Positions 16,437 through 43,914 of a stretch of 64,000 nt of DNA are shown in pieces; position 1 is the stretch's first letter, and each line of letters opens with the position of its first letter. This DNA is from a virus. Its lineage: Duplodnaviria; Heunggongvirae; Uroviricota; Caudoviricetes. A model generated the notes under the pieces. The model worked only from the letters and a program-made list of their open reading frames with translations, made no database searches and was not told the DNA's origin. The stretch is taken from positions 134-64,133 of the IMG/VR virus record IMGVR_UViG_3300025316_000590. One strand, given 5' to 3'. A program made the translations under genes and the position numbers.

Positions 16437-19202
16437 ATGCCGTTAGCTGTACCGCAGTTCGTCGATGTCGGTGGGGCTCAATGGAAGATTCTTGATCGCC
16501 ACGCCGAGCAGGAGGCGATGTGGAACACCGCCCGCTACTGCAAAATGATCTACGCCTGTGCTTCCCGTGGTGCAGGCAAGTGCATCGTCGAGGGCGGTCT
16601 CGTGACGATGGCCGACGGCACCGTGCGAGCCATTGAGGATGTGAAAGCTGACGATCATGTTGTGAACGTCAGCCGTCACCTGCGGCGGCAAACGACGAAG
16701 GTGGTGGGTCTCATGAACAACGGCATGCGGCCCACTCTGAACATCCGCCTGTCGGGACGTGTGTTGCCATGCACAGATAATCACCCTCTGCTGGTCAACG
16801 GCAATCATTGGGTGAACGCGGGCGATGTGCGGGTAAATGATCTTGTGGCGGTGCTCAGATCGGATCCGCAGTTCGGCACAGAACGCATGGCTGATGATGA
16901 CCTCGATTTCCTCGCTATGTGGCTGGCTGAAGGTGCGGCGTACACCATCAGCAACCAGACGCCCGCTATCGTGAACCGTCTGCACGAGGTTGCGGCGGGT
17001 TGGGATTTGACGCCCACCAGTGATGATGGGTGTGCATGGTACTTGAAGATGAATGCTCCACGGCACGATGCGAATCTTGGCGTGCGGCATCAGGCGAGGT
17101 TGCTGCTGGAACGCCTCGGTTTATGGGGGCGGGACAGTAAAACGAAGTTCATCCCCGACTGCGTATTTAAGCTGCCCCGCGATCAGCTTGCCCGATTCCT
17201 GAGCGTGTTCTACGGCTGTGACGGTTACTGCTGCCCGAAAACAGAAAGGGGCGGGCGGGTCGCTTACACTATCGGTACGGGCTTGGCGAATCGTCTTATG
17301 GTACGGCAGATGTCGGCCCTGCTCCTCAAATTCGGCATCCGTGGTAGTTTCACTCATAGACATCACGCGGCACGCAGCCGTCGCACTGGACAGCGGTTTC
17401 ATTCATGGCGGCTGGAGACGGTATGCTCGGACGGCATTGTGCGGTTTGCTGAGGAGATCGGCATGCTGGGGAAAGAGACTGCTGTGCAGCGGGCACTCAT
17501 CGCGGCCAAGGCACTGACCCGACCGAACTGTAATGATCTTTTGCCCATCACCGAACAGGAATTTAGCGACCACGTTGTAATTCGGCGATACCACATCACA
17601 CCGCACAATGCCAGAATTCGCGGGGCTGCACCCGATCTGCTTCAGAATATGAGCCTGTGGCGAAACAGGAATTCTCGGCGGGTGTCGCGGGCCATGTTCG
17701 AGAAGATCAGGAAGCACTCGGACGGATCATTCGACAACCTCGCTGATGGTGATGTGGTTTGGGAACGCGTCGTGGCCATCGAGGATGGTGGCGTGCGACA
17801 GACGTATGATCTGGAGGTGGAAGGCGAGCATAACTTCATTGTGGAGGGGGCAGTTGTTCATAACAGTGAGATGGCCAAGCGTAAGCTGGCTATGAGTCTG
17901 GGTATCCGCAAGCCGTGGTATGACCCACGCTATTTCTACGCTGCCCCAACGTACCGGCAGGTTAAATCAGTGGTGTGGCAGGATATGCTGCACTTCGTGC
18001 CGCCGTCGTGGATCGCACCACATGGCATATCACACAGCGAACTCACGATCAGGACGATCTTCGGCAGTGAACTTAAGCTATTCGGTCTGGACAGCGCACA
18101 GCGCATGGAAGGCGTGCAGTACGATGGTGGCGTTGTAGACGAAGCCTCCGACGTCGACCACGGCATGGTTGACCGAGCTATTCTCCCCGCCCTGACGCAC
18201 CGCGACGGCTGGCTGTGGAAGATCGGTGTGCCTAAGCGGTTCGGCATCGGGGCGTATGAGTTCAAGAAGCAGTTCCTGCGTGCGATGCGGAAACGCCGCG
18301 AGTCCGAGGCCAACGGTACAGTTCCAGAAGAAGCTGCGTTCATTTGGCCCGCAGACGGCATCGTGCCCCAGGCCCGCCTGGACTTCTACCGTCGCACGTG
18401 GGATCCGCAGGACTTTGAGGAGCAGTTCGGTGCCCAGTGGCTGGAGGTGGGCGGCGGCATTTACCACAGTTTCTCAGCGGCGGAGGACGGCACGGGCAAC
18501 GTGCGGCCATGTCCGTACCGACCTGATCTGCCCATCCGCGTAGGCATGGACTTCAACGTGAACCCAGGTGCGATCACCCTGGGACACAAGGTCGACAATC
18601 ACTTTGAGGTGTTCGACGAGTTCCATCTGCTCAATACGAACACCCAGAGGATGCTCGACTCCCTGTGGAACCGCTACGGCACGCCAGGGCGGAATCATCG
18701 CAGTGGCTTCTGGTTCTACGGTGACGCCACGGGCCGAGCACGCAAGACGTCGGCAGCATCATCTGACTACACCCAGATCTTCAACGACGCCAGATTCCGC
18801 GAGGTGGGTCGAACTATTCATTGGCAGAAGAGCAACCCGCCCCGCACCGACAGGTTTGCCTGCACGAACGCCCTAATCAAGAATGGTGAAAATGAACGTC
18901 GATTACTCATCGACCCACGATGCACGCACCTGATCGACGACTACATGCACCGTGCGTGGCGTGAGCACACCCGCGAACTGCCGACCGAAGAAGGTATGGT
19001 AGGGCATCATGCAGATTCATGTGACTATATCATCTGGCGTGTGTTCCCGCTGCGTTTGAACGTCATGGAGCTTCCCGACGTCAGCATTTCCCTGCCAACG
19101 CAGGCAACGTTGCCTAACCCCGGCCTGACGTCGCAAGTGCCCGGATACATGGATCCGCGGGCCAGCCGCAGTCTGAGAATCAATCCATTGGCTGGCGAGT
19201 AG
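16437..19202 (+). CDS. terL: Terminase large subunit, intein-containing
   Basis: Walker A ASRGAGK|S, YAAPTYRQVK, Walker B GGVVDEA, nuclease GMDFN, YGDATG, HHADS. Confidence 0.93.
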   Translation: MPLAVPQFVDVGGAQWKILDRHAEQEAMWNTARYCKMIYACASRGAGKCIVEGGLVTMADGTVRAIEDVKADDHVVNVSRHLRRQTTKVVGLMNNGMRPTLNIRLSGRVLPCTDNHPLLVNGNHWVNAGDVRVNDLVAVLRSDPQFGTERMADDDLDFLAMWLAEGAAYTISNQTPAIVNRLHEVAAGWDLTPTSDDGCAWYLKMNAPRHDANLGVRHQARLLLERLGLWGRDSKTKFIPDCVFKLPRDQLARFLSVFYGCDGYCCPKTERGGRVAYTIGTGLANRLMVRQMSALLLKFGIRGSFTHRHHAARSRRTGQRFHSWRLETVCSDGIVRFAEEIGMLGKETAVQRALIAAKALTRPNCNDLLPITEQEFSDHVVIRRYHITPHNARIRGAAPDLLQNMSLWRNRNSRRVSRAMFEKIRKHSDGSFDNLADGDVVWERVVAIEDGGVRQTYDLEVEGEHNFIVEGAVVHNSEMAKRKLAMSLGIRKPWYDPRYFYAAPTYRQVKSVVWQDMLHFVPPSWIAPHGISHSELTIRTIFGSELKLFGLDSAQRMEGVQYDGGVVDEASDVDHGMVDRAILPALTHRDGWLWKIGVPKRFGIGAYEFKKQFLRAMRKRRESEANGTVPEEAAFIWPADGIVPQARLDFYRRTWDPQDFEEQFGAQWLEVGGGIYHSFSAAEDGTGNVRPCPYRPDLPIRVGMDFNVNPGAITLGHKVDNHFEVFDEFHLLNTNTQRMLDSLWNRYGTPGRNHRSGFWFYGDATGRARKTSAASSDYTQIFNDARFREVGRTIHWQKSNPPRTDRFACTNALIKNGENERRLLIDPRCTHLIDDYMHRAWREHTRELPTEEGMVGHHADSCDYIIWRVFPLRLNVMELPDVSISLPTQATLPNPGLTSQVPGYMDPRASRSLRINPLAGE
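16581..17864 (+). mobile_element. Intein with LAGLIDADG endonuclease (428 aa) in TerL Walker A
   Basis: Starts CIVEGGLV; TDNHP block B; FLAMWLAEG and FLSVFYGCDG; ends YDLEV..HNF..VVHN followed by Ser. Confidence 0.93.
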
Positions 19203-19232: not shown

Positions 19233-19460
19233 ATGAACGCTCATGATGAGATGGCAATTGAGGTGCGGGTTTTACTCGTGAAGACCGGAGACACGACCCT
19301 GGGTACGATCTCCCACAGGACGCACATATCATGCCCCGTGCTGATCCAGATGCTGGAGGCAAACAAGGAATCATTCTGGTTTCTGAGAAAGGCCCCAGCA
19401 CGTGAATCCGACGTCGGGCTGACGTCGGTGGGTATGGCGAAAGCCTCGGAGGAACAATGA
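19233..19460 (+). CDS. Hypothetical protein
   Basis: GGAGG SD; stop overlaps next start. Confidence 0.6.
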   Translation: MNAHDEMAIEVRVLLVKTGDTTLGTISHRTHISCPVLIQMLEANKESFWFLRKAPARESDVGLTSVGMAKASEEQ

Positions 19461-22400
19461 TTATAGACGTACCGATCATTCTTGGTGATACAGCCGGTCA
19501 TGAGTTCCGCGGGAACCAGTACACAGGTCGGTCTAAACAATCTGACGTTCGTGATACGAATGCCGCCTGGCAGAAGATCATGGACATGCCGACGACCGAT
19601 GATTCCAGCAAGGCTGGGTTTGTGCGGCCAGACGGCAAATACGTGAACATGAACAAGGGCCGACCTGGTTGCATGAACCATGCTGATCTGTTTCCCAGAA
19701 ACCCAGGCCGTTTACAGGAGATCATTGCTAATGGTATGTTGCGGGTGGACGCGGACTTCGGCATCGTCGAGGTTGGTAGCAAACCCACATCAGAACAGCG
19801 GGCATCATTGCGGGAATTCATACTGGATACGATGGTCAGCGGGAAGACCATAGACCTCGATTTGCACAGCGGTCTGGGTAAGCCTTTTAAAGATGATCCA
19901 GTGACGACAACGTACCGACGACCAGACGGTGGCGTGGTGAAGCAGTTCAGGAGCAACCCGGATGATGTGATGAGCAGCATTGATCAGTTCTTCAGTCAGC
20001 CTGAAAATCATGTTAGGTATCAGTCGCCGCACAAATCATTCCTCAGCACCGATATACCTTCGTGGGCAGCTTCCCTTGGCCTACAGGCAGAAACCTGTCA
20101 TAATGGTCAGCAGCCCCAAGGAGCAATCATAATGCCCGTTCTGGAAGTACCCATCATTCTCGGAGACGTCGCAGGTCACCCGTTCCGTGGTAACCAGCAC
20201 GCTCCCGATCCGCACGGCGACGTGTTCGACGTGGGTGAGAACCCCAAATTTGCGGGATCAATGGTGAATGCAAAACGCATGGAGAGGGAAGCCCGCCGTC
20301 TGCACGAGGCGTTTCAACTCCACAGCGATCCATCAGAAAGTGACCATCATCGCATCGGTGATGCCCTAATCGAGGCCGCCGATGCTCATCGCAAGGCTGC
20401 CGATGCTGCCACATATCGTGTGAACTATGACAAACATCATGCCCTCGCTGATGATCTTATTGGTCTTGCAAAAGATCATGCAGAGTCCGCAGGAGATCAC
20501 GAGTGGCCGACCAAGCCGGGCAAGCTCAAGGATGATTCCGCCCTGGTGAAGCCGCTAACCGTATCGCTCAACGTGGATATCACGTTGGGTGGTCCTGGCA
20601 GCGGAAATCATGGACACTCGGGACGGCCCGGTCATCGCGGCGGATCTGCACCTCGTGATAGCGGTGCTGGTTCCAGTGCTGATATCATGACGGCTAGTGA
20701 CGGCAAGAGCGAAAAGGCGATGGACGCGACACGTGCCCTGTCCGGTCACCTCAACAATGACGACAAGATCGACGTTGATGATATGGACTACTTCCGCGAG
20801 CAGGCCCGTGGTCGCACGGGAGGTCGCGAGCGAGTCAACCTGCCCGAGTCTCTGGACAACATCAGTGTCATTCATGATTCCCTGGCCGAAGGACATCATA
20901 CTAAGGAGGACGCGTTCCGCAAGGACGGCAAGTATGATGAGGCCAACGCCCACGGTACTGCCGCCGGCCTGCACGAGGACGCCGCTCTGGAGGCCGATAA
21001 ACTGGCTGCGGACCTGCGGGGCAAGACCGGCCTGGGTGACAGCAAACCAACGCCCAAGGTGAAAGAAGTTCAGCCGCCCGTGCAGTCCAAACGAGGTCAC
21101 TGGAGTAACGAACCGTTGGATCGTGATACGCATCCCAGCGTACCGTATGACGAAGCTCGCGCTCCTGGGGCGAAGAAGCCCGATGGTGTTAGCGACGCAC
21201 GCTGGGCGGCCATCCAGCAGCAAATCAAGAACCGTGGCGGTAAGCGGGACAAGACGTTCCGCGAGCATCATCAGTTCGAGAACTATGAGGATCGACCACC
21301 CAATACATATCCCGTTCCGCCCAGGTTTCCTGACCACGTCCTGAGCATGGACGTAGACATCATCCTGCCCGGCGAGGCTACGATTCATGATGCTGTCGAT
21401 ATCAAGCTCAGTGGCACGGATGATGAAGACGGCAGGTGGGTCACCATGCACGGCAGTCCGGTTTTCATCAAGACCGGTCAGAGCTTCGACGACGCCATTA
21501 AGGAGCACTTCAAGAAGAACAATGTCAAGACGCATGCCAAGAAGTTCAAGGCAGAGGATTATCAGCAGCCGAACATTGGCGAACGCGTCTCGGCCTGGAA
21601 GGGCAAGTCAGTCACCGAGCGTGACCGCATGGCCAACGCTTCGGTCTCCATCCCCAAGCGGATTCACGAGTATGTCGGCGATCTGCCCAAGGCTCCCAAC
21701 ACCGGCAAGCTCGAATCTGATCTTCATGCCCGTGTCGACCAGATGAAGGATCGCTTGACGCCGGAAGCGTCGGTTATGATCAAGAAGACTCTGTCTGATT
21801 ATTCAGGTAACCTGACCAAGGCCGGCGTGGATGACGAGACGGCCCGCGACTTGTCGATGCAGGCTGCTGAACACCTGGCTGCTCAGGAGATGGAGGCGTG
21901 TACCCGCCAGCTTGGCGACCACGGCATTCATCATATCGAGGGCAATATTCGTGTGGGATCGCAAATCCTCGACCAGATACCGGGTCAGGGGACAGCCGAG
22001 CAGAAGGCCATGCTGGCGACTGCCATGATCTTCCACGATGCTGGTTACCTGACCGAGCCGTCCCGAAACTTCCTCGACGAGGGTCACCCGCGGTGGTCGG
22101 CCCAGCACTTCCGGGCCAACATTGGCAACCTGACCGACAAGGCATTTGGTACGGCAGCCACGGGCCAGATCGAACACGTCATCGCCACCCACGACGCCAC
22201 GGACATGAACTGGGAAAGCGACCCGCTTGGATCCGCCAGCCGCGTAGCCGACAACCTTGCATTGTTCAGTAAGGAGAAGCTGCCGCCGATGTACCGCTAC
22301 GTCCCGGCCAACGAGAAGACTCTGGAGGCGTTCGCCGAGAAGAAGCTCAGCCTGGAGGATGCCCGAGCCCAGATCAAGGAGCAGACAGCAAAGTCAGACC

Positions 22401-24490
22401 TGCCCGACAAGGTGAAGGCCGCCCTGACAAAGGCCGCCGATGAGATGGGGCCGCTGACGCCCAAGTTCACACTGGGTATGCTGGGCGGCGAGATCAGCGA
22501 CATCAAGTGGGACAGTGGGCACGTGCGAGTCGACCTGAAGGAAAGTGCCGAGGTGACCCGCCTGAACAAGATGGGCGACTTCGGCCAGCGGCAGTTTGGC
22601 AAGTTTGCCGAGACCTATGGCGGCGACCCGAAGCAGTTCTCGTCTGATCTCAACTTCAAGTTCCGCAAGCCGCCGCCGGATGGACAGGTGATGCTGGAGA
22701 CCCGCATCACGAAGTCCAGCGGCGAGGTGAAGGCCAATCTGGACGTCCCATTGGAACTGGGCGATCTGGCCGGGCATCCGTTCCACGGAAATCAGTGGAC
22801 CGGGGGCGGTGGCAACGCAAAATTAGCACCGGACAACGGCGGAGGTGCGGGCGGGGCCGGCGGCGGTCGCCACCCCGCCTTCGCCAGTGTCAACGCACGC
22901 CAGATCATACGGTGGTGCGGCAAGGAAGGCATGAACGCAGCCGCAACAAAAGCGGCCCTGAACCGGGCCGGTATGGATGCTCCGCTGCCGACGATTCGAG
23001 CTGAACTACCCATTGGGGCGAGAGGCATTGGTCGCAAGGGCGAGCAGGCCCCTATCCACCCGTTTACCGCTGATCAAAAGGCCGTTCTACGCGGCGGTGT
23101 GTACCGCACCGCACCGGGCCTCACGGACGCACAGGTAGCCCGTGCTGCCGAGTTCCAGGCCAAGGTCGGACAGCGAGCCCAACAGGCCCCAGCCGCCGCA
23201 CCAAGCCCCAACGCTGCGGGCGTGGCAGCCGTGAACCGCATTATGGCTACACCGGCCCATGTGACGGCCACGGGGCAGGTAGGCTACAGCACCCGCAAGG
23301 ACATCGCCGACCAGGCCGATGGGGAAATACGTGGTCTGCGGGCCAGGATCAACGCGGGTGATCGTAGTCAGGCGACTTACCGCGAGCGTGCCCTGGCCGG
23401 GCTGGCTGCCGCGAACGCTCACCGGGCTGCGGCGATGGCTGCGAACGACGCGGGCAACAACGCGGCGATGATACAGCACATGGAACGGGCCAATCATCAC
23501 GACACTCGTGCTCAATACTACAACTCGAAGCTGCCCGCTAACATGCGGGCTCAGGGTGGTGATGATGACGTGCGGAACCGCGGCAACGCAATCGCTGCTA
23601 GGGCCGGGCACGCCAGTGCAGTTCCGCCGGCCCAGGCTGCGGCACCAGCACCCGCTGCACCTCCGCCGAAGACGCCGGCGGCGATTGCCGACGTTGAAAA
23701 GAAGCTCCAGTCCGATCCCATCACCGAATTAAAGAAGGTGGGTGGGACGCACATCAGTGACTGCTACGCGGCAAAGAACGGTAAGAACATAGTTGGCTTC
23801 TACAAGCCGCAGAACGGCGAGTGCGGCTACCTGCGACCGGGTCAGACTGTGAATGATCTTCCTTACGACCGCAAGGGGCAAGCCGCCCGCGCGTTCATTG
23901 CCCACGGGTTCACCGCAGGCCAGTGCTACAAGCGCGAGCTTGCTGCCTGGGAGGTGGCCAAGGCGGTCGGCATGACCGATATGGTTCCCGCCAGCCAGGA
24001 ACGACACCACCCCGATCATGGCGTCGGTGTAATCATGGATAACGTGCCGGGCAAGGACGCGGGTGATATACTGATAGCAGCACAACGTAAGGGACTGGTG
24101 GCCCACATGCAGGCCCACGAGCAGGCTTACGACGGTATGCAAGATCAGCAGCGGGCTTTGATCTTTGACTACATCATCCAGAACGTGGATCGACATCCGG
24201 GCAACTGGCGGTTGAAGCCGGACGGACGCATCGGTCTGATTGATCACGGCTTCAGTCTTCCGACGCAGGACTGCCATAGTCATTTCGCCCAGAACGACGC
24301 CTTCGCCCAGAACGTTGATCAGCACAAGAACATTCCAGCCGACGTCAAATCCGCCTGGAACGGCAAGTGGCCACAGATCGAAGCTGGCCTTAAAAAGTGC
24401 GGAATCGAGGATACGGCTATACATCTGGCTAAAAAACGCTACGATAAGTTGATGGCCGCGACGACCTTCAGGGACTTCATGCGAAGCTAG
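19457..24490 (+). CDS. Polyvalent cargo polyprotein 4: GFxRPD module, His-helical modules, HD domain, C-terminal PI3/4K-HipA-like kinase
   Basis: GNQ motifs at 19475, 20153, 22751; HD: DHGIHH..FHDAGY..H..THD..ADNL; kinase: FYKP, RELAA, DRHPGN, IDHG. Confidence 0.85.
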   Translation: MIIDVPIILGDTAGHEFRGNQYTGRSKQSDVRDTNAAWQKIMDMPTTDDSSKAGFVRPDGKYVNMNKGRPGCMNHADLFPRNPGRLQEIIANGMLRVDADFGIVEVGSKPTSEQRASLREFILDTMVSGKTIDLDLHSGLGKPFKDDPVTTTYRRPDGGVVKQFRSNPDDVMSSIDQFFSQPENHVRYQSPHKSFLSTDIPSWAASLGLQAETCHNGQQPQGAIIMPVLEVPIILGDVAGHPFRGNQHAPDPHGDVFDVGENPKFAGSMVNAKRMEREARRLHEAFQLHSDPSESDHHRIGDALIEAADAHRKAADAATYRVNYDKHHALADDLIGLAKDHAESAGDHEWPTKPGKLKDDSALVKPLTVSLNVDITLGGPGSGNHGHSGRPGHRGGSAPRDSGAGSSADIMTASDGKSEKAMDATRALSGHLNNDDKIDVDDMDYFREQARGRTGGRERVNLPESLDNISVIHDSLAEGHHTKEDAFRKDGKYDEANAHGTAAGLHEDAALEADKLAADLRGKTGLGDSKPTPKVKEVQPPVQSKRGHWSNEPLDRDTHPSVPYDEARAPGAKKPDGVSDARWAAIQQQIKNRGGKRDKTFREHHQFENYEDRPPNTYPVPPRFPDHVLSMDVDIILPGEATIHDAVDIKLSGTDDEDGRWVTMHGSPVFIKTGQSFDDAIKEHFKKNNVKTHAKKFKAEDYQQPNIGERVSAWKGKSVTERDRMANASVSIPKRIHEYVGDLPKAPNTGKLESDLHARVDQMKDRLTPEASVMIKKTLSDYSGNLTKAGVDDETARDLSMQAAEHLAAQEMEACTRQLGDHGIHHIEGNIRVGSQILDQIPGQGTAEQKAMLATAMIFHDAGYLTEPSRNFLDEGHPRWSAQHFRANIGNLTDKAFGTAATGQIEHVIATHDATDMNWESDPLGSASRVADNLALFSKEKLPPMYRYVPANEKTLEAFAEKKLSLEDARAQIKEQTAKSDLPDKVKAALTKAADEMGPLTPKFTLGMLGGEISDIKWDSGHVRVDLKESAEVTRLNKMGDFGQRQFGKFAETYGGDPKQFSSDLNFKFRKPPPDGQVMLETRITKSSGEVKANLDVPLELGDLAGHPFHGNQWTGGGGNAKLAPDNGGGAGGAGGGRHPAFASVNARQIIRWCGKEGMNAAATKAALNRAGMDAPLPTIRAELPIGARGIGRKGEQAPIHPFTADQKAVLRGGVYRTAPGLTDAQVARAAEFQAKVGQRAQQAPAAAPSPNAAGVAAVNRIMATPAHVTATGQVGYSTRKDIADQADGEIRGLRARINAGDRSQATYRERALAGLAAANAHRAAAMAANDAGNNAAMIQHMERANHHDTRAQYYNSKLPANMRAQGGDDDVRNRGNAIAARAGHASAVPPAQAAAPAPAAPPPKTPAAIADVEKKLQSDPITELKKVGGTHISDCYAAKNGKNIVGFYKPQNGECGYLRPGQTVNDLPYDRKGQAARAFIAHGFTAGQCYKRELAAWEVAKAVGMTDMVPASQERHHPDHGVGVIMDNVPGKDAGDILIAAQRKGLVAHMQAHEQAYDGMQDQQRALIFDYIIQNVDRHPGNWRLKPDGRIGLIDHGFSLPTQDCHSHFAQNDAFAQNVDQHKNIPADVKSAWNGKWPQIEAGLKKCGIEDTAIHLAKKRYDKLMAATTFRDFMRS

Positions 24491-24499
24491 GAGACAGCA

Positions 24500-24757
24500 A
24501 TGTTCATATTCTGGTCTAGGAACGATGACGGTGAGGCTACCGAGGTCGGTCGCATTTGGATTCAGGATGGCGTTATTCAGGCCAGCGGTTCGGAACGCGT
24601 GCTGGCTATTGCCAAGGAGCCGATTGAGACGACGTTCGGCGACGAGGTTGACCCGGTCGGCGACCCAGAGGCATTCCTCGACGCGATTCTCATGCGGTAT
24701 CATGGGACATACTTCTTCGCCACCGAGGTTCCGGACGAGACACCAACGCAGGTATAA
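24500..24757 (+). CDS. Small acidic protein, putative kinase immunity/partner
   Basis: AGGAG SD; paralog of 43630..43914; both follow kinase domains. Confidence 0.65.
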   Translation: MFIFWSRNDDGEATEVGRIWIQDGVIQASGSERVLAIAKEPIETTFGDEVDPVGDPEAFLDAILMRYHGTYFFATEVPDETPTQV

Positions 24758-24760
24758 CAC

Positions 24761-26962
24761 ATGCCTATTCAGTCATCCAACGGACCGCCCGTGCGGCGAC
24801 GAATCAGCACACCCACGCCGGTAACCCGTCGCAGGATTCTCTCCCTGTCGCAGGGATTCGGCGATCCCAACATGAACATGCCTGACGGTCAGGTGCATGC
24901 TGCGGGCGTCGATATGTCGGGTAACCAGTACCCAGCAGGTGCCGGGCCTGGAACGCAGGGCAGTGCTTACTACTCGGGCAGCACAGGGCGTCGCTCCGAT
25001 CAGCAGGCCCGCAGCCCGCAGGTCATTCAGGTGCAGGGGCAGGCCATGCCCCAGACGAACATGGTGCTGCAACCTGGCAGCCCGGAAGTTCTTACCCATG
25101 AACTGACCACCGGCCAGACCGGCATTATCTACGGCGTGCCCCAGGCCCCGATAGTGATGATCTCCGACCCATCGGTGATCAACCTCTATCGCAAGTATTA
25201 CACCACATACGAGGAGTATCGGAAGATCCGCAAGGATCCGACGATAGCCCTGTGCCGGGCAGTAATCGCCGCCCCGATTCTCAGTAGCACATGGCAGGTG
25301 AAGTCGAAGGAGGGTGTCGAGACCGAACGCGTGGCGTTCATCACGGACATGCTTGTGAAGCATCGCTTCCACATCATGGAGAAGGCCATTTATGGCATGA
25401 TCGACTTCGGCTGGCAGGGATACGAGAAAGTGTTCGGTGTCGATATGTGGACGCCGCCTCCTGACCGGCCAGCATCGAAGGATGCGGATCAGCCGCAGAT
25501 GCCAGCACCCGTGCCGCCGTCAGTTCCTGATGGCACGAGCAAGACCAATCTCCAGCTTGCGTTCGGCCAGCCTGACAGCAATGGTGCTGTCCCGACCAAG
25601 GTCGAACCACCCAAGGATCCGCCCAAGCCGAAGCCCAAGAAGATGGTCGTGCTGCGGAAAGTCAAACCGCTGCTTCAGGACATGACCAGTATCATGGTCT
25701 ACCTGTACACCGGCGACTTCGCCGGCTTCCGGCAGGGTATCGTGTTCGTCGAGGCTCCAGCCAAGGCGATGTTGATCAGCTACCGCGTGGAAGGCACGAT
25801 GTGGCATGGCTATCCACTTCTGGAGCAGGCCCGCGAGACGGTCGAGAAGTGGGACAACGTCGAGATCGGTGCCCAGCGTTACGACATGAAGATTGCGGGC
25901 AGCCACTTCGTGGTTTACTATCCGATGGGCAGCAGCAACGTCAACGGTGCTCAGGTGAGCAACGCATCCATCGCTAACGACATCATCAGGGGCTTGGAAG
26001 CGGGCGGCAGCATGTCGGTGCCGAATATTCTGGCCCAATACGTCGAAGGCATGGAAGCCGGCGGTGAAAACGCGAGTAGTGCCTGGAAGATTGACTTCTT
26101 AGAGGACCGCGGAGCCCGCCAGTCGAGCTTCGTTGATCGCTTGAAGTACCTCGACTCCCTGAAGTGCCGGGCGATGAACATTCCAGAGCGGGCCATCACC
26201 GAGGGTCAGTTCGGCACGAAGGCGGAGGCTCAAGGGCACGCCGATATCATGACGGTCATCCTGCAAAACATGGATTTGCAGGTAACGCAAAGCGTCAATA
26301 CTCAGGTTGTCGATCACCTTCTGGCCATGAACTACGGCAAGGATGCTGTGGGATCCGTGTGGTTGGAAAGCTCTCCGATCTCGGACGACCGCATCAGCTA
26401 CGCCCGCAGTCTGTTCACGGCGATGCTTACAAACCAGCAGATGGGACCGGCCATCTTCCCGCACATCGATTTCTCGGCCCTCATGTCCGAGGTTGAGGTC
26501 CCCCTGAACAAGGGTGTGGTGCGGCAGGCCGGGCAGGCAGAAATCGGCCAGCTTGCTCCGGGTGGCCCGATGATAGCACCGCCGCCTGGATCGGGATCAC
26601 CAGGGGCTGGCGGGGCCGCAGCCGGGGCGATTGCCCACACCGGCGTGTCGCCGCAGCAGCCCAACGGAAAGGCCGCACCAGGCCCCGCCACGAGCAATCC
26701 CCAGGCGGAAGCCGCGGCGAAGGAAGCAGCCGCACAGGCAGCGGATACGGCCCGCCAGAAGGCTTTGGCAAACCAGATGGGCCTACAGCCCGGTCAGCAG
26801 AAGACCATTCTCGACGTCATCCGACACATGCGGGCGTCGGGTGGCCTGCCACCGAAAGGCGTCACAGGCGAGAAGACGGGGGCACAGGCACTAGGCGTGC
26901 CCCAGGCCAGCCAAGCCCCGCCGCCTCGCGGGCGAAGCCTCACGAAGGGCAGCGGTGGCTAG
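24761..26962 (+). CDS. Portal protein (Mu gp29/DUF935-like) with low-complexity extensions
   Basis: YRKIRKDPTI..W.V..FGWQGYEKV..GYPLL..GTKAEAQGHAD; lies downstream of terL. Confidence 0.75.
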   Translation: MPIQSSNGPPVRRRISTPTPVTRRRILSLSQGFGDPNMNMPDGQVHAAGVDMSGNQYPAGAGPGTQGSAYYSGSTGRRSDQQARSPQVIQVQGQAMPQTNMVLQPGSPEVLTHELTTGQTGIIYGVPQAPIVMISDPSVINLYRKYYTTYEEYRKIRKDPTIALCRAVIAAPILSSTWQVKSKEGVETERVAFITDMLVKHRFHIMEKAIYGMIDFGWQGYEKVFGVDMWTPPPDRPASKDADQPQMPAPVPPSVPDGTSKTNLQLAFGQPDSNGAVPTKVEPPKDPPKPKPKKMVVLRKVKPLLQDMTSIMVYLYTGDFAGFRQGIVFVEAPAKAMLISYRVEGTMWHGYPLLEQARETVEKWDNVEIGAQRYDMKIAGSHFVVYYPMGSSNVNGAQVSNASIANDIIRGLEAGGSMSVPNILAQYVEGMEAGGENASSAWKIDFLEDRGARQSSFVDRLKYLDSLKCRAMNIPERAITEGQFGTKAEAQGHADIMTVILQNMDLQVTQSVNTQVVDHLLAMNYGKDAVGSVWLESSPISDDRISYARSLFTAMLTNQQMGPAIFPHIDFSALMSEVEVPLNKGVVRQAGQAEIGQLAPGGPMIAPPPGSGSPGAGGAAAGAIAHTGVSPQQPNGKAAPGPATSNPQAEAAAKEAAAQAADTARQKALANQMGLQPGQQKTILDVIRHMRASGGLPPKGVTGEKTGAQALGVPQASQAPPPRGRSLTKGSGG

Positions 26963-33024: not shown

Positions 33025-33225
33025 TGCTGGCCGCAGCCCTATACCGGAGATTGGAATGCTCATATCAAAGATCGTCTGGAGGCCCACGTGCGTGCTGAGG
33101 TAATAGCTGGTAGAATGAGCTTGAAGGAAGCCCAGCAGATCTTCGTTCCAGATTGGACGTCGACCTTCAAAAAGATGGGCTTAGATAAATGCTCCGCAAT
33201 CCAGGTTGACGAAGACATCCAGTAG
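33025..33225 (+). pseudogene. Displaced alternative 3' end of the 31407 HNH gene
   Basis: Startless frame CWPQPYTGDWNAHIKDRLE..GRMSLKEAQQIF.PDWT, homologous to LWPEPYNVQWGAHIKDRLE..GKMTLKQGQDVF.PDWT. Confidence 0.85.
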
Positions 33226-33232
33226 GTTAAAT

Positions 33233-36200
33233 ATGATCATTGATATCCCGATCTTTCTCGGAGATGTGGAAGGCCATGCGTTCCACGGCAATCAGTGGAC
33301 GGGCAATGCTAAACTGGCTCCCGATACGGGAGGTGGTGATGGCGGAATGACCGAAGTGGAAGAAGGCCACGATCAGACCATGCGGGGTGAGTTCTGGCTA
33401 CAGGGATCCACGGCGATGTCGGCTGATGGTGATATCGATGATATGAACCACGAGGCGTACGCCATCCAGCAGGCACGAAGTGATCTTGCCGATTCCCTCG
33501 GTGTGGACTCCGACGATGATGATGCAGATACCATCATCGAAAAATATGCCGAGGATCATCCCGATGAAGCTGATATTCTGAGGGGTAGCGATTACAGTAC
33601 GCCAGAGGCTAAAAAGCTATTCGAGGAAATCGGCTTGAGCCCTGATACCCTGTCGGTGGCACAGGGGTTCGGCGATTCCAGGTTGTGGGCGGCAGCAGAG
33701 CACGGATGGGTGCGGGTGGCTGGCAACAGCGTACAGACCGTGGGCATCGATAGCTCCAAGATGTCCGAGATCGCGGATGGGCTACATGATGCGTACGGTG
33801 AGGATGTGGAGACGCAGTCGTTCGATGTGGAGGTCGTTACTCATGACTCGGCTCGCCCCGGTATGGTGGTGAACTCGCACACGTACCGCGATGTGCCGTT
33901 TCAGGTGCTGGGCGAAGGAAATATGAGACGATTCTCTGAATACCGCGATGCCGCATTTTCTTTGTCTGGTGATACGCCGAAGCCTACTGGCGACAAAAAC
34001 AATCGGGGCGAGTCTGGATACTGGATCACGACACATGGCGGCCACCACGTCTTTATCCTTGAAGGTGGATCTGGTATCGATGAGGATAAGCTAAAGGCCG
34101 CGGCAGCGACACTGCCGTCTACGCCTGGGTTTGGGACGGCACAGAGCCGTGCCGCGAGCCGGGCGGCAGGAAACGTCATCAGCGGGAACACGTACCGAGT
34201 CAAAGACCTCATTAGTCATTACGGCGGGCAGTGGGATGGTAAAACTAAAGACTGGGTCATGCCCAACGCCGAAAGCACGAAGATGATGCGAGACGTGATG
34301 GCGGGCAAGTACAACGCCAGTACAGCATCACCCGCACCGCGTGTATCATCTCCAGCGGCAGCACCACTTGTGATTCATGGTGCTACCTTCGGCATCAAGG
34401 ACGTGATCAAGAGTGCCGGCGGTCGCTGGAATCCCAACGGGAAGAATTGGTTGATGCCAAACCAGGAAGCTGTCGAAAAGGTGCGTGATCATGTAACGAA
34501 GAACAGCATCAAGGGCGTGAATATGCCCGACGCCGCCAAGGAACCGGCACCGGCAGCGAAGCCGGAAGCAGACGCCGTGGAGGCAAGACAAGCGGTACGC
34601 GTGGCACGGGCGAATCGGGATGGGAAGGGTACGCTGTCGCGTGATGCTGAAAACGCAACAGATCATTCATCCCGACTGGACAACGTGGCCATGCAGAAGA
34701 AGACGCCGGAATCCCTGACCGCGGCCTTGGCTGCCACAGCAGACGCGGCGACGAAGCGGCGGGCGGCTGCCGATGCCATGATCGATCACAACAACCAGAT
34801 ATATCGGGATCATATTAACTGGGCCGAGACTCATGAACAGCGTAAGGCATCCCTGGAGCAGGAACTGCATCATCCAGAGGTAGCACAAGCTGCTGCTGCC
34901 GAAGCGGCACTCATTGCTAAACCCGTGGCGTGGAAATCGCATCGTGCGGGTGGCGACGTAACTGCAAGATCAGAAACGCAGCAAGGTTTCACGGTGCAAA
35001 GCCAGCGTGGTGAATATAGTGCTAGCCCGGATGAAGGTTATGTCGGCCAACTGCGTGGCTACCGCGTGTACTTCAAGGGTAGCGACGGGTCGCAGGAAAG
35101 TCTCGGTACTGTTTCAGACATGATCGGGGCATCGGGGATGGTCAACAAACATTTATCGAAGAACAAGGATCATACCCTGTCCTTGGAGGTTCCAATTGAT
35201 ATCGGTCGCGATGCGAGCTTCTTCGCTCCGGGCGTGCCAGTATCGTACAACGGTTTGGTTCAGCACGTCAGGGACCCGCAGGTTCAGAAGAATGCCGACA
35301 GAATCATTTCGGGCACGACCAACAAGCCACTGATACAGCGTAGGATCGAGAGCGACTCTGATCTAGCCCATATCTTTGGCGGCAAGATAGACTTGCCTAC
35401 CGCACAGCACGCAGCCGACATTACGTGCGACGAGCTTAATCTGTTACGCCTGACTGTGAAATTTATGGTGGGCGACAGCGGCCTGACCAACGATGGATTC
35501 CAGCGGGTTGGTCATTACAAGAATGATACAGCACAGTTATGGGGAGCTGGGCAGACCATACCAGTTCTCCTGCATGAGATTGTGCATCATGTGATGACCC
35601 ACAGCCCAGATTGTGAACCAGAGGATAGGCACAGTCCGCTATTTAACAGTACCTATTACAGGGTAGTCAATGCCTATCTACAGGCGATTGGTTCGACGGT
35701 TTGTCTGTCTCTCGATGTGCCTATTGAACTGGGGGACGTAGCGGGTCACGAGTTTCGTGGCAATCAGTACACTGTTGGAATAGCCAAAGACTATTTTCCC
35801 AAGGAGATGCATCCCAAGGGAATAGGTGAATCGTTTGTTCACACGACTACGGTTAAGGCGGGCAGTCGTGCAGAGGCGGCAAGTAAGTACTGGGCCGAAC
35901 ACGGTCCAAGTCATTTACCACGCATGATTCCCGAGGGTAGGCTGCCCAGGAAGGTCAGCGTTCACGTTAGCTCATCTGGATTTAAGCCTGGAATGGGCAG
36001 CGAGACCGGATCGGGACCGTCGCGTCTAATGCCGATTTTGGTACACGGACCTGGGGCTCCGCAACCGCTGGAACGTACGTTCAAGACCATGAAGCATGCG
36101 GCCAATGAACTGCAAGCGATCAGGAACGACTTTGCATCGGCGGCACACGATCCCATCGATCAGCTCAAGGCTCGTGTGGATGCAGTGGGCAAGTGGGCGG

Positions 36201-39200
36201 CTGGGCAGAAGAATACCAAGTTCATCGCCAAGCTGCTAGAGGAGGCCCACATGCTGCACGACAGGCTAAGTGGAGGCAGCGGCAAGGCTGGCATGCGTAT
36301 CCAGATGAACCTCGACGATTCGCTTGAATTGGGTGACACTGTTGGGCACGAGTTCCGTGGGAACCAGTGGACAAAGCATCTTCTTGCCAAACTTCCAACG
36401 ACGGACGATAAGTCTCAGTCTGGATTCATTCGCCCCGACGCCCAATTGGTAGATGTCGGGCACAGCGATGCATTTGACGATGTCAAAACACACGCGGCGG
36501 CGGCTCTCGGGGAAGATGGTGTTTACGAGGACGAGCCTCGTGCCATGAACGCTCTGGCCAAGGCGATGCATGTTGGGTTCATTCGTCATACGGGGAACGG
36601 AAGTTTTGAGATACACAAAGAGCCGACGGATAGCCAGTATCAGACTATTCAGGATATGGCAGAGGATGCCGTGCAGCGAGGCTACCGAGCACGGGTTCAA
36701 ATGTACGGAGCCAAAAATATACCATCGGGTGCCGCGGATAACGCATACGTCAGTGCGAACAGTGATGCTGAGGTCAGGGGTATATCAGATCGAGTTCGGA
36801 TGTACTATCAAACTGGCAAGCAGCCGTACGTGTCGCCACTACGCCTTGGTGACGTTGCTGGTCACGAGTTTCACGGCAATCAGTGGACAAATCACGGACT
36901 GTCAAAGTTACCCACCACAGAAAATCAGGATGACGCCGGTTTCATTCGGCCAGATGCGAAGCTGATTGATATGGGTAGAAGCATCGGCTTCAAGTTCGAC
37001 AAGAACGGTAGGGAATTAAAGGGTGGCCCTTTAACGCATCTAAAGGCGGCTGGTAGCCACAGTCAGCTAGATGTGGCATTCGCACATGGTTTCATTCGGT
37101 ACTACCCAGAGCATCAATCTTTTGATATCCACAAGGAACCGAATGATGCACAGTACGAACGCATCGCGGCGATGGTGCATAAGCATGCTGCTGAAGATAA
37201 GGTATCCAACCTGGAACTATTTGATAGCAAGGGCGAGAGCACGTACATTGAGATAGAACCAGAAACCCCTGATTTGGCCGTGAGCAAGATAAGGTCGTTT
37301 TACTCAGGTGTTAAACCGTATGCGTCTCCGCTACGCCTCGGTGACGTAGCGGGCCATGAGTTTCATGGTAATCAGTGGACGGAGGGTGCGGCTCGCCTAG
37401 AGGTCGCTGCCATCAAGGCGAGTAAGGCCCGCGAGGCACTGGACGCCTTGATCACCGCGAAGGCCAGCCCGGAGGCCAAGGAACCGCTGGCCGCGGCGTG
37501 GCGGAAGGCACAGGACGAATACGCGGATATCCATCGCGAGGTGTCGAACATGCCACCGCAGCCGCCACCGCCGTTGGGTAGCCTCACAGGCCCCGACGAT
37601 GGCAGCCGGTTCGACGAACTGCGGAAGAACGGCCTGCTGGTGAAGAACGGTCGCCCGACTGGCACGCGAGACGTAGGGCCGGTCGATATCAAGGGATGGC
37701 GAGTCGGCAGCCGAGATGACAAGTACGGTCGTGGTGTGTTCTATGCATCGGACGATCAGGGGGCGAAAGCTTACGCATCCCTGCATCCAGGCGAGGAGGT
37801 CAAGGCTGATGATCTTCACCTCACCAATGTCCTCCTGGCCGGTCATCAGGACGACGTGAGCATGAAGCTCTTCGGCAAACACTACGGCGATATGATGGAT
37901 GGCCTGGCTGCTCGCAACAAGAGCGAAGTTGTGGGTGGCCAGAAGTTCGATGTGAAACTTGCCAAAGAAGCGAAGAAGCGTGGTTACGACGCCATCATCT
38001 ACACCGCACCTGCCCCGCCGGCTAGTGGTGAAATCGCCGTGTTGGGCAGCAAGAAGCGTGCAGCGAAGCTAAGCCTGGACGTACCGCTGGAACTGGCCCT
38101 AGTGACTTTCGACGATATCAAGGACGGGGGCCGGAACCGTGTGCAGCGGGACTTGGCACAGGCGGCTGCTGACACCGATACCGAAGCCTCCGAGGCTGCG
38201 AAGAAGGCCGGGACACTACTGATGTCGGTGCGTGTAGAGGGCATCGACCAACCTGTAGAATTCGGATATGGGCAGGGCATGCTTCATGATGTTGATTGCA
38301 CCAGCACACAAAACGATGTTGCCCTTGACGTAGCCCTTAGCGGAGTCGATGCGGTCAACGGAAACAATCATAGGGTTGATGCGTCGGTGTCCATGACGCC
38401 GTCTGGTTCCAACCTTACGGGCGTAAATCATGGGCAACCCTGTGTAGAAGCATGTGCCGTTTTGACTGTTCCAAAGGTCACGGATGTAATCGAAGTCGAT
38501 ATTGCACTTCCTATGCGTTTGGCGACATCGCAGGCGAACGTTGTCCATGACGGTACGAAGGGCGAAATCGAGCGATTTGAACTTCCTGGTTTTGTAAGCA
38601 GCCTTAGCTCGCTTTCTGCATCCGTGACAGACACCCTCAAAACTCGTTCTGCCAGTCTTCAGCAGAACTTTATTAAAACTTCCCACGGGAAAGTCGTCGC
38701 CACACCGCTTGCAGCGTTTTTGACCAGTACGGATGGCCTCGGCGGTGCGGTTTCTGGCACGAATCGAGCGTTGGTTGAACAGCGTCGAGTCGTCAATGAA
38801 CCGACGAACATCGGAGGCAAACTTATCCGTGAAAAACATAATCTTCTGGTCGCATCGACCAGAAGTACCGATAGGAAAATGAATAGTGTAGTCGATGCCA
38901 ACGGTAGGCGACAGGGCTCGAACCACTGTACGCCGCCATCCATCGTAGCGGGTTGTGACCCTGCGTCCCGTGGCAGTCTTGATTTGCCGATAGAGATCGA
39001 ACAGCGGTCGGGAATCGACGGGAAATCCAGAGTGGACAGTAGCAATTCGTCGTCGTATGATGACCATACTAAAACCTCCTTAGTAGGTTGCGGTCATGCC
39101 CCTGGTGTTTCCAGCACGCAGGGGCAACTTCTATGTTCTAGCATAAACACTGATGCTGATCAAGATGTTAGGCATCAACTAGCGAAAGCTGCATTGGAAA

Positions 39201-42200
39201 CCGACCTTCATTCTAGTCCAGCACAGCAGCAGTCTGGATCATACAAGAAGGGCCGTGTCACCATAGCTGGACTGGGTATCGCCATCGAGAACCCGCACAT
39301 GAGCACCCGCTGCGGTATCGGAGCGAATGGCCCGTGGTCTACCGTGATGAAGGGCGGGCACTACGGTTACATCTACAAGATCGACGGCAACTGGGCTCCG
39401 CGGAGCGAGGCTGATGGTGATCACATGGATATCTTCGTGGCCCCCGACATCGGGAATGGCCCGGAGACCGATACAGTCTACGTCATCGACCAGACCAAGG
39501 TGGGTTCCCCCGGCGAGTTCGACGAGGCCAAGGCCATGTTCGGCTATCCCAACGCCGACGCCGCAGTGAAGGCGTACTTCGACAGCTACAGCCCCGGCTG
39601 GGCGAACGTAGCCGACATGGTACAGATACCTCTGGGTCAATTTAAAGCGTGGGTGGAGTCGGGGAAGACTGCCGAGCCCGCGGGCCTGCTGAAAAATGGA
39701 ACTGCGGTTACGTTATCCCACGACGAGGACGAAGAGGATGATGATGACGATACGATTGTGGAGCCCAACGTTCTGGGCGGGCATAACTACCGCAAGCAAG
39801 ATGGCCGCACCGCCTCGACTCGCAGAAACGTGTTCGGCGGCGAGTCCCAGGTGGGCGACGGTGACTTCGAGACCCGGCCCGGTGTGGGCGGCACGAAGCA
39901 CGTCAGTGGCCATCTGAAGTTCAGCACGGACGTACCGCTGGAGCTTGGCGATGTCGAGGGCCATGCCTTCCACGGCAACCAGTGGACGCAGTCGCCCTTG
40001 GCGAAGCTGCCCACGACCACGGATACTAAATCAGCCGGCTTCATCCGACCTGACGGGAAGCTCGTCGACCTGAACCGCAACAAGCGTGAGGGTTACTTGA
40101 GCCACAGCAACGCCGCCGAGGGAAACCTGCACCAAGAGCTTGCCCGCAACGGGTTCATTCGCTGGTCGCCTGACGGATACAAACTGGACATCCGGTCCGA
40201 GCCTACCGACGAGCAGTACGCGGCCATCTCCGATATTATTGCGAAACACCACAAACCCGTAGACCTGGAGATGGGCGACCAGACCGGCAAGGCCGATGTG
40301 GGATCGTGGGAGAACGGTGTGGCCGCGGTCAAGAAGCTGAAGGACTGGTCGTCGAATGGTGCCCTGTCTACGGCAATTGCCGCCAGCCTTGAGTCAATCT
40401 ACGCTGCCCGTGATGAACTGGCACTGAGCGACGTATCATTCAAAACATTCAGCCCAACGCAGGAGAAGCTGCCAATGGGTAACTACGATTACGAATATAA
40501 CCATCCGCTGTGCAAGAAGCACAACTATCGTCACAGCCGCAGGGGCATGGGGTGCCCGTATTGCCGAGATGATGGCAGCCAGCCTTGGTGTAGTGCGTGT
40601 GGTGAAGGTATCCCGCTAGGCGAGGTAAAGCAGGACGAGCCGCATACACATGACGTGCATAAGACGTGTGCGGGTAAGCACCTGACCGCTCTGGAAAAAC
40701 TACGGCCATTGATGGATTACGAAACGCAGTGGGAGAAAGCCAAAATGCCAGAAACCAAACCACAGCAGGGCGGGATGCTCGCCATGTTCTCACGCGATGA
40801 TCGGCAGGCTATCCGTTTGTCCCGTCGCAAGAAGAAAAAGGAATTGGTCAAGTTCACCGAGGAGACTGCACCACTACAGGCCCGTGCCTTGCTCCACTCC
40901 CTGGCCATGCGATTGATTGCCTGCCGCGACGCCGGTTGGAACCGCCAGCAAATCTACACCGAGCTTGGCCGGTACTATAACTCGCAGGTCGCCGATATCT
41001 GGGACGCCGCCGAAAACCAGGAGGTGAAGCGGATGGTCGTTCAGGGCGAGATTGCAGCCTCGCTGGAGAAGACCGTGAAGTGCCTGGACTGTGATCAGGA
41101 CTGCGACGAGAACGGCAAGTGCCCGAAGTGCGGTGGGGCAGTGAATGTGTTCACGGGTAACGCGTTCGGTCTATCAGCGGACGTCATCACGGCGTTCCGA
41201 GACCTGTTCGATGCCTACCTGAAAGGTGATGTTGTCCTCGGCGACCTGCCTGGGCATACGTTCCACGGTAACCAGTACGGTGGCCTGCCGGTGTACGATA
41301 AGCAGCCTTGGGGCGACGCCTGGCAGAAGCGTATGGCCCGCAGCGGTCTTGATCCTACCAAGGTGAAAACCGTTCTGGTCAAATCTTCATCGGGAGGCCG
41401 ACCGCACTACTCCAAGATGCTGGCTCATCCTACCGAGCCGAGGAAGGCGTGGGTGGGTGAAGCGGGCAACGTCCACGAGGAGGTAGTTCCGCACCATAAC
41501 GTGTATCATGCGAATTCGCAGGGGAACGTGGTTCTCCTTGGGCCAAAGCCAGATCATGAACTCAAGTTTGTGGAGGATGGTAACGTGACCGCATCATTAG
41601 ATATTCCGCTGGAACTGCACATGGCAACCGGCAAACGTGATGAAACCATCGGCATCGACTTCGATGGTACGCTGGTCAAACGGCTGGATGGCCCGTACAA
41701 CCCCGCCGCCCACGGCGACCCCATCGACGAACGCTGGGACGAGGTGCGTGCCGCCCTCGACGCGGGTAAGCAGGTGGTGATTTTTACGGCCCGCGTGGCA
41801 AACGATCCGAACAGCATCGCCCGCGGAGCCATCGAAGACCTGTGCATGGAGGAACTGGGGCAGGTACTTCCGATCACCAACGAGAAGACCCCGAACATGA
41901 TCAGAATCATCGACGACCGAGCCACGGGCGTGACTCCGGACGGTACGGACATGCCCAGCTTGGCTGCGTCCCTCGATATTCCTCTGGTGCTTGGCGATAC
42001 CCCAGGCCACGAATTCCACGGAAATCAATGGACAGGAGGAGGCGGTGCAGCTCAGGGTGCAGCCAACGCAGTCGCGTCAGGCGATGCGGCGATGCTTGTG
42101 CGGATGGGTCAGCCCCACCCAGCCTTCACCAACTTCAAGCAGCCCATGCGGAAGCTCCTGCGGTGGTGTGGCCGGGAGGGCATGAACCTCCAGCAGGCCA

Positions 42201-43629: not shown

Positions 43630-43914
43630 ATGATCATTGTTGAAATTTACGAGGCAGCCAGCGGCGAGTGGAGTAAGGTCGGCGACGTGACATTCGATGG
43701 TGGAGTTCTGTCCGCTACGGATGATGGTGTACGCCTAATCAATGAGCCTCTGCAATGCCTCGACGACAGCGGCAGGTACGATATCGATCCCAAGGCTGAT
43801 CCCGAGAAGTTCATCCGAACCCTACCGAAGGTGATCACGGGATCGTACTACCGGGCCGTCATGACTCGGAATGACAGCCCGGCGACGCTGGAAGTTCCCG
43901 TGCGTATTGGCTAG
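43630..43914 (+). CDS. Small acidic protein, putative kinase immunity/partner
   Basis: AAGGA SD; VG.....G...A..EP..DP..DPE.F..G.Y..A shared with 24500. Confidence 0.65.
   Translation: MIIVEIYEAASGEWSKVGDVTFDGGVLSATDDGVRLINEPLQCLDDSGRYDIDPKADPEKFIRTLPKVITGSYYRAVMTRNDSPATLEVPVRIG

Follow-up and report, generated by a model that had tools for sequence, protein, structure and literature searches.

A conserved two-part module of uncultivated phages pairs a type II PI 4-kinase-like domain with a small partner protein of probable HipS-like fold

Among described systems, the closest to the one reported here are the Hip modules hipBST, hipJS, hipIN and hipL (PMC6581861, PMC8262856, PMC10627512, PMC9325769). 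HipS corresponds to N-subdomain 1 of HipA made as a separate protein. Its fold starts with four N-terminal strands, continues with the helical region that forms the interface and closes with one more strand, and it neutralises the kinase HipT by placing Glu63 and Trp65 at the Gly-rich loop (PMC10627512). The HipS-like protein of hipJS and hipIN is encoded downstream of the kinase, sometimes with a second domain attached, and in hipL the kinase, a domain resembling HipS and a HIRAN domain form a single chain (Gerdes et al., PMC8262856). Another HipA-like kinase is neutralised by a DUF3037 protein, deletion of which is toxic (PMC12548924). A second kind of arrangement is that of the MuF polymorphic toxins of phages, where an open reading frame (ORF) of under 150 amino acids follows 89% of toxin genes (Jamet et al. 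2017, PMC5576092). Here we describe a cassette with features of both, consisting of a kinase that forms the last domain of a giant head-module protein and a gene for a small partner protein directly after it. The cassette occurs twice in the window, by which we mean the whole 64,000-nucleotide stretch analysed (positions 134 to 64,133 of IMG/VR record IMGVR_UViG_3300025316_000590), the first third of a 192-kb phage record that is 99% complete by CheckV. It is a real, conserved and widespread phage module of two parts that has gone unnamed, and a literature search found no description of it.

The head module of the phage includes several giant ORFs in which a header motif, L-D-V-P-L-E-L-G-D..G-H-x-F-x-G-N-Q, recurs at intervals, and two of the encoded proteins, polyproteins 4 and 5, end in the kinase (coordinates in Table 1). 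A first-pass annotation, made from the letters and translations of the window without database searches, had described polyprotein 4 as ending in a kinase with the motifs FYKP, RELAA, DRHPGN and IDHG, all four of which are found in its translation, and as followed by an acidic 85-residue gene. That gene is as described in spacing, length and acidity (net charge -12): its ATG (24500) lies beyond a spacer of 9 nucleotides from the TAG of kinase 1 (24488-24490), and an AGGAG Shine-Dalgarno sequence sits inside this spacer, 6-7 nucleotides 5' of the ATG. Acidity was ruled out as a trait of the partner family, whose mean net charge is -2.2. Only 3 nucleotides separate the end of small gene 1 from the start of the portal gene, which places cassette 1 in the head module. 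The second cassette noted in the same annotation is likewise present with a homologous partner. The TGA of kinase 2 (43616-43618) is separated by 11 nucleotides from the ATG of small gene 2 (43630), for which an alternative TTG start at 43615 would give 99 amino acids. The two small proteins are 24% identical (E 3e-7), and the terminal modules of polyproteins 4 and 5 are 37% identical across about 600 amino acids (E 1e-82). The whole 192-kb genome has two copies of the kinase and two of the small partner, with no third copy of either. The tail of small gene 2 (43888-43914) reads L-E-V-P-V-R-I-G, a truncated copy of the header motif that resembles its start, and may mean that the gene formerly ran on into another module.

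This arrangement had been likened to the layout of a polymorphic toxin and its immunity gene, and the likeness holds. As in MuF toxins (PMC5576092; Apk2 toxins, PMC12226406), a head-module carrier bears a variable C-terminal enzyme and a small ORF follows; one relative, locus L027, combines a MuF domain (E 1.7e-17) with the kinase in 402 amino acids, and a small ORF comes next. The window departs from MuF toxins in that a Pfam search finds no Phage_Mu_F domain in either polyprotein 4 or polyprotein 5, polyprotein 4 is encoded upstream of the portal gene and not downstream, and no kinase is listed among the toxins of PMC5576092, where the word "kinase" occurs 0 times. Unlike the MuF toxins of temperate phages, moreover, the cassette sits in a phage that gives no sign of being temperate, and its family hardly occurs in 185,579 prokaryote genomes, where a kinase profile finds 5 distant matches only. 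Polyvalent proteins (Iyer et al. 2017, PMC5512222) are alike in being very long multi-enzyme phage proteins, predicted to be delivered together with the DNA, in which kinases, ART, GNAT and peptidases recur. Polyprotein 5 has an InPase domain, the kinase and other modules in one polypeptide, in keeping with the 2-15 effector domains that characterise polyvalent proteins, and relatives of the window polyproteins further bear Zeta toxin, MuF, ART and GNAT domains. The kinase clade of PMC5512222, found in Verrucomicrobia, Chlamydia and Bacteroidetes, differs by its description, being of Ser/Thr/Tyr type without a C-terminal subdomain and having no partner protein described. The head-module context suggests that the kinase is delivered in the virion, as the first-pass annotation had proposed.

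Pfam model PI3_PI4_kinase (PF00454) matches kinase 1 with 30.5 bits (E 4.4e-7) and kinase 2 with 39.2 bits, above its curated gathering (GA) cut-off of 27.1 bits. Across an alignment of 14 sequences K39, R82-E83, D167-R-H-x-x-N172-W and I184-D185 are invariant. These residues are the ATP-binding Lys, the R-E pair of the N-lobe helix, the catalytic D-R-H-x-x-N loop and the Mg-binding Asp (I-D-x-G), an intact catalytic set from which the kinase should be active. The AF2 model of kinase 1 (mean predicted local distance difference test score, pLDDT, 81.8) has phosphatidylinositol 4-kinase (PI4K) type II alpha, PI4KII alpha, as its top match both in Foldseek (E 1.3e-7, template modelling (TM) score 0.64) and among VIA structural matches (Z 20.7, with 243 residues aligned at a root mean square deviation (rmsd) of 3.9), and a profile search of the PDB matches PI4K2A (E 1.2e-10). 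Next in the structural ranking come CtkA (Z 14.0), Fam20 (13.6), HipT (12.1-12.7) and HipA (11.5-11.7), so that, as judged from the model, human type II PI 4-kinases are by a wide margin the nearest structural relatives. A Pfam search finds no match of HipA_C (PF07804) to the window kinases, and the match to HipA_2 (E 0.014, 15 bits) falls under the cut-off of 27, in comparison with 46-54 bits for the true Hip kinases of loci L019, L021 and L022. These three IMG/VR contigs carry hipIN-type modules, each a HipA_C kinase with a Couple_hipA-HIRAN protein (L019:4575-6206; L021:858-2475; L022:3656-5255), which match PADLOC PDC-M03 with E down to 1e-139. Given the bacterial host, we infer that a protein is a likelier substrate than a phosphoinositide.

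A two-sequence alignment of the kinases led to 17 IMG/VR loci, in which the kinase frame and the frames that follow were read. Among 12 non-redundant relatives found by kinase similarity, a small domain comes directly after the kinase stop in 10. It is an ORF of 70-95 amino acids at or just past that stop in L007 (twice), L008, L009, L010, L011, L013, L014 and L016, and in L012 it forms the N-terminus of the next large protein. Most partner starts overlap the kinase stop or sit within about 35 nucleotides of it, a tight coupling. What comes after kinase and partner varies: a portal gene, an unknown gene, a protease, a scaffold or a second polyprotein. A role of small gene 1 as a lambda gpW-like head-completion gene, considered for its place before the portal gene, was ruled out, as copy 2 and the relatives precede quite different genes. 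The pairing was also approached from the other side, by a degenerate-DNA scan for the partner motif that is independent of the kinase and was used since partner alignments are too variable. In IMG/VR the scan found 8 true partner loci, 6 of them non-redundant, and all six have the kinase directly upstream; in the JGI metagenome collection it found 16 non-redundant true loci (13 of them new), with a kinase in three or four and none in nine. The first-pass annotation had named a partner family without ties to kinases elsewhere as a finding that would count against it; what we find is a pair kept across many unrelated uncultivated phage contigs. The tie is asymmetric, because the kinase nearly always has the partner but the partner family also lives elsewhere. 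One truncated partner domain (L063:4294-5151), in a frame of 51 amino acids, follows a polyvalent protein that has no kinase, and is possibly a decaying cassette.

In a tree of the kinases, window kinases 1 and 2 are sisters (88/87 support), as are the two kinases of L007 (92/95). The cassette has therefore been duplicated independently twice, kinase and partner going together on each occasion. The duplication in the window also took in a stretch of about 300 amino acids upstream of the kinase, common to the two window copies and present in no other locus. Divergence has been quicker in the partners than in the kinases (24% vs 35-37% identity; end branches of 4.3-4.7 vs 1.2-1.7), as would be expected under cognate specificity; the partner tree does not resolve, and we therefore make no claim of co-phylogeny. 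Searches by tblastn with the window kinase, the L027 kinase and a typical partner gave no match among 50,697 GenBank phages, single-sequence searches of IMG/VR for relatives of the kinase and the portal found none, and word-index homologue searches returned near-identical fragments only. The family is one of uncultivated phages, which are probably lytic.

Searching 1.84 billion representative proteins with a profile built from 12 partners gives a family of 872 clusters at E<=1e-3, of which 111 pass E<=1e-10. Its members are mostly free-standing proteins of 76-100 amino acids; roughly 130 of the best 150 are shorter than about 130 amino acids, and about one in eight of the same 150 is fused to something else. 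The signature of these 150 is [DN]-P-E-x-[WF]-h-x-x-L-P-x-x-Y-x-G-S-Y-L-R-A, with conservation of 92% for the P, 98% for the aromatic residue, 97% for the L, 95% for the A and 60% for the E. Pfam, PHROGs and PADLOC were all searched and none has a model for it, and this large, unnamed family is a well-defined target for annotation. The 872 cluster relatives and the confident predicted fold show that the small ORF is no mere chance frame. The idea that such ORFs are chance frames or decayed remnants of polyprotein modules could draw on the header-like tail of small gene 2 and on the truncated copy in L063; it is effectively refuted by that breadth and fold, by 92-98% conservation at the key motif positions, and by the Shine-Dalgarno and start signals. 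One family member, P0014 (176 amino acids), has tandem partner domains, the first resembling small protein 1 of the window and the second small protein 2; it looks as though both partners were fused in a phage related to this one.

The AF2 model of small protein 1 (pLDDT 91.7) has three N-terminal strands, a helix, a hairpin, a long helix and a closing strand, and the long main helix starts at the D-P-E-x-W/F motif. The model was aligned exhaustively to 48,161 PDB chains. Ranks 1, 2, 3 and 5 went to HipS (7ab3_B and 7vkb_B, Z 4.0) and to N-subdomain 1 of HipA (4pu3_A, Z 3.8; 5k98_A, Z 3.4), the HipS matches covering about 65 residues at an rmsd of 3.4; Foldseek gave no match to PDB or BFVD at E<=0.001. 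Z scores as low as these would carry no weight by themselves, but two further searches point the same way. An ESM Atlas feature search with family member P0022 returned Couple_hipA clusters as 28 of 30 matches (score 0.96, 179/256 features), and a structure search with the same protein listed HipA (TM 0.57-0.63) and DUF3037 clusters. With small protein 1 of the window the structure search placed DUF3037 at the top (TM 0.58) and listed HipA at TM 0.53. By these structural and language-model matches, though not by sequence profiles, the partner probably has a HipS-like fold.

Set beside HipBST, hipJS, hipIN and hipL, the window kinase likewise has a PI3/4K-fold Ser/Thr kinase core without an N-subdomain 1 of its own, and the separate partner of about 85-100 amino acids is likewise predicted to have an N-terminal beta-sheet, helices and a last strand. 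As in hipJS, hipIN and hipL, the partner is encoded downstream of the kinase or fused after it and can have extra C-terminal domains. The E-x-W/F of the phage partner, in its helical region, has the spacing of HipS Glu63 and Trp65 and an apparently comparable position in the fold. Window kinases also give weak PADLOC matches to PDC-M03A and PDC-M66A (the latter at E 0.006), Hip-type kinases that have HipS-like or DUF3037 partners, and these matches, together with the second-tier structural matches to HipT and HipA, we count in favour of a Hip-like relation. The HipA-like kinase with DUF3037 (PADLOC PDC-M66; PMC12548924) is again a kinase with a small partner, one that neutralises it, and DUF3037 clusters are the top structural neighbours noted above; that pair differs in being a bacterial anti-phage system, and the window partner has no PADLOC match. 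The Hip modules are chromosomal toxin-antitoxin operons, unlike the phage cassette, whose kinase is C-terminal in giant head-module proteins, whose partner shows no sequence-profile link to Couple_hipA, and which, unlike HipBST, includes no HipB or other helix-turn-helix gene.

From this comparison we tentatively favour, at a little under even confidence, a reading in which the partner is an antitoxin-like guardian of a kinase that is packaged in the capsid and injected, acting as HipS does on HipT or as in hipJS and arranged in the way of a MuF toxin and its immunity gene. The first part would be an active kinase of PI3/4K-like fold, the last domain of a polyvalent (MuF-type) cargo protein of the head module; the second would be the translationally coupled protein of about 85 amino acids, with a fold like that of HipS or HipA N-subdomain 1. 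The partner would dock near the nucleotide-binding loop of the kinase by way of the helix motif [DN]-P-E-x-[WF]-h-x-x-L-P..Y-x-G-S-Y-L-R-A and keep the enzyme inactive during its synthesis late in infection; the kinase would be packed into the capsid, enter the next cell by ejection and there act on a protein of the host, the precedent among Hip kinases being aminoacyl-tRNA synthetases. If so, the cassette would show how a phage shields its own late gene expression from its kinase, and control of the HipS type would extend beyond Hip kinases to one whose closest relatives of known structure are eukaryotic type II PI 4-kinases. Apart from a few model phages, little is known about injected phage proteins that reprogramme the host during the first seconds of an infection, and a cassette common in uncultivated phages would add a kinase class to the injected arsenal.

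A number of observations weigh against the guardian reading, and the first-pass interpretation of a virion-delivered kinase neutralised during assembly is accordingly borne out in part: the linkage, the layout and a fold that points to HipS support it, and the fusions and kinase-less loci set the partner apart from a classical immunity protein. As to relationship, the kinase is a type II PI4K-like enzyme outside the HipA_C family. The best partner Z, 4.0, falls under the level deemed meaningful by the notes of the alignment tool, and the ESM Atlas feature search returned nothing with the window small protein itself. Pfam Couple_hipA (PF13657) is absent from the genome (E<=10) and from 60 family members, and hhalign of the partner profile against profiles of the HipA and HipN N-domains gave probabilities below 1%, one of these comparisons resting on a set of HipA fragments too uniform for a good profile; on sequence criteria the partner is placed outside the Couple_hipA family. 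In both window partners the aromatic residue of the E-x-W/F motif is F and not W. As to linkage, L006 and L015 have the kinase with no detectable partner, and 9 of 19 non-redundant loci fetched with the motif have the partner with no kinase; in three of the nine (L046, L053/L055, L057/L058) it is paired instead with a REase-ARP nuclease of the PD-(D/E)xK type. As to architecture, the partner domain is N-terminal to the MuF protein in L007, to ART, GNAT and dual-specificity phosphatase domains, and, in L030:5431-8271 (also L031 and L032), within a 947-residue protein with a C-terminal XkdF-type prohead serine protease (Peptidase_S78_2, E 1.9e-23). In P0040 it is N-terminal in a further polyprotein, with a header motif directly after it, and in a single case, P0083, it comes after the kinase within one chain. 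Because of these fused forms the partner is probably often inside the capsid together with the kinase, where an immunity protein need not be.

Such fusions suit another explanation, possible if on the unlikely side, in which the partner is a non-inhibitory subunit or adaptor, comparable to N-subdomain 1 in full-length HipA, that completes or stabilises the kinase or sets its choice of substrate; when fused, it would tether cargo (MuF, prohead protease, ART, GNAT, phosphatase) to the kinase for joint packaging and delivery. It accounts for partners N-terminal on packaged or effector proteins, often with the header motif next (P0040, P0101, P0083), for the single chain of P0083, which resembles HipL and HipA, two proteins in which no inhibitory action of the domain is known (PMC8262856), and for the vestigial header motif that ends small gene 2; the fold evidence serves it equally with the guardian reading. 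The fused forms fit a subunit or tether at least as well as an inhibitor, and an inhibitor that is co-packaged and then lost or degraded after ejection would fit them too. Against a subunit or tether stand the free-standing state of most family members, the existence of partner contexts without a kinase, and precedent: the experimentally studied small partners of the same fold beside Hip-type kinases neutralise them in three cases out of three (PMC10627512, PMC9325769, PMC12548924).

The kinase-less loci, three with the REase-ARP nuclease and others with orphan partners, raise a further alternative, that the partner is a promiscuous general module (a capsid-targeting domain, a chaperone or a stand-alone regulator) whose place beside the kinase reflects hitch-hiking of cassettes. 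The fusions to many unrelated domains would agree with it. We consider it improbable, as the partner stands directly after the kinase whatever gene comes next, 10 of the 12 kinases are partnered, and both independent duplications copied the pair. The REase-ARP loci, on a sub-branch of the partner family, have bacterial-looking neighbours (PFOR, TPR and LuxR-type genes), and the partner with this nuclease may be a separate two-gene module of toxin-antitoxin type. The guardian reading could then be widened to a promiscuous family of HipS-fold guardians that neutralise unrelated toxic enzymes, PI4K-like kinases in phage cargo and REase-ARP nucleases in bacteria, and that double as tethers when fused; we hold this wider proposal to be doubtful. 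Were it true, the toxin-antitoxin principle would let phages build and load an injected weapon safely, each duplicated cassette having its own cognate guardian.

Table 1. Positions of the two cassettes and associated genes in the window, and of partner loci paired with a nuclease on other contigs
Feature	Coordinates	Strand	Remarks
Polyprotein 4	19457-24490	+	1677 aa; between intein-bearing gene and portal gene
Terminal module of polyprotein 4	22733-24490	+	Header motif (LDVPLELGD..GH.F.GNQ), Ala-rich region of ~300 aa, then kinase
Kinase domain 1	about 23690-24487	+	Type II PI4K-like, catalytic residues intact
Small partner gene 1	24500-24757	+	85 aa; HipS-like predicted fold
Portal gene	24761-26962	+	Pfam Portal_Mu E 3.1e-11; phrog_113 portal
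Polyprotein 5	33206-43618	+	3470 aa; upstream of protease-scaffold gene
Terminal module of polyprotein 5	41966-43618	+	Parts ordered as in polyprotein 4 module
Kinase domain 2	42827-43615	+	Pfam PF00454, 39.2 bits
Small partner gene 2	43630-43914	+	94 aa from ATG; family hidden Markov model match E 3.5e-16
Partner + REase-ARP nuclease loci	L046:7013-8149; L053:717-1816; L057:1502-2708		Three independent metagenome contigs; partner sub-branch

The gene directly upstream of polyprotein 4 (16437-19202) contains an intein with a LAGLIDADG homing endonuclease (Intein_splicing E 6.8e-17). Elsewhere the kinase shares its protein with other enzymes. In L034:3-1976, a Zeta-toxin kinase and the PI4K-like kinase lie in one protein of 658 amino acids, and the partner gene follows. 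The polyprotein with the kinase also contains an InPase domain (PF18823, E 1e-34 to 1e-39) in the window (39221-39659) and likewise on the unrelated contig L007 (L007:5944-8850), which suggests a recurrent cargo set of pyrophosphatase and kinase.

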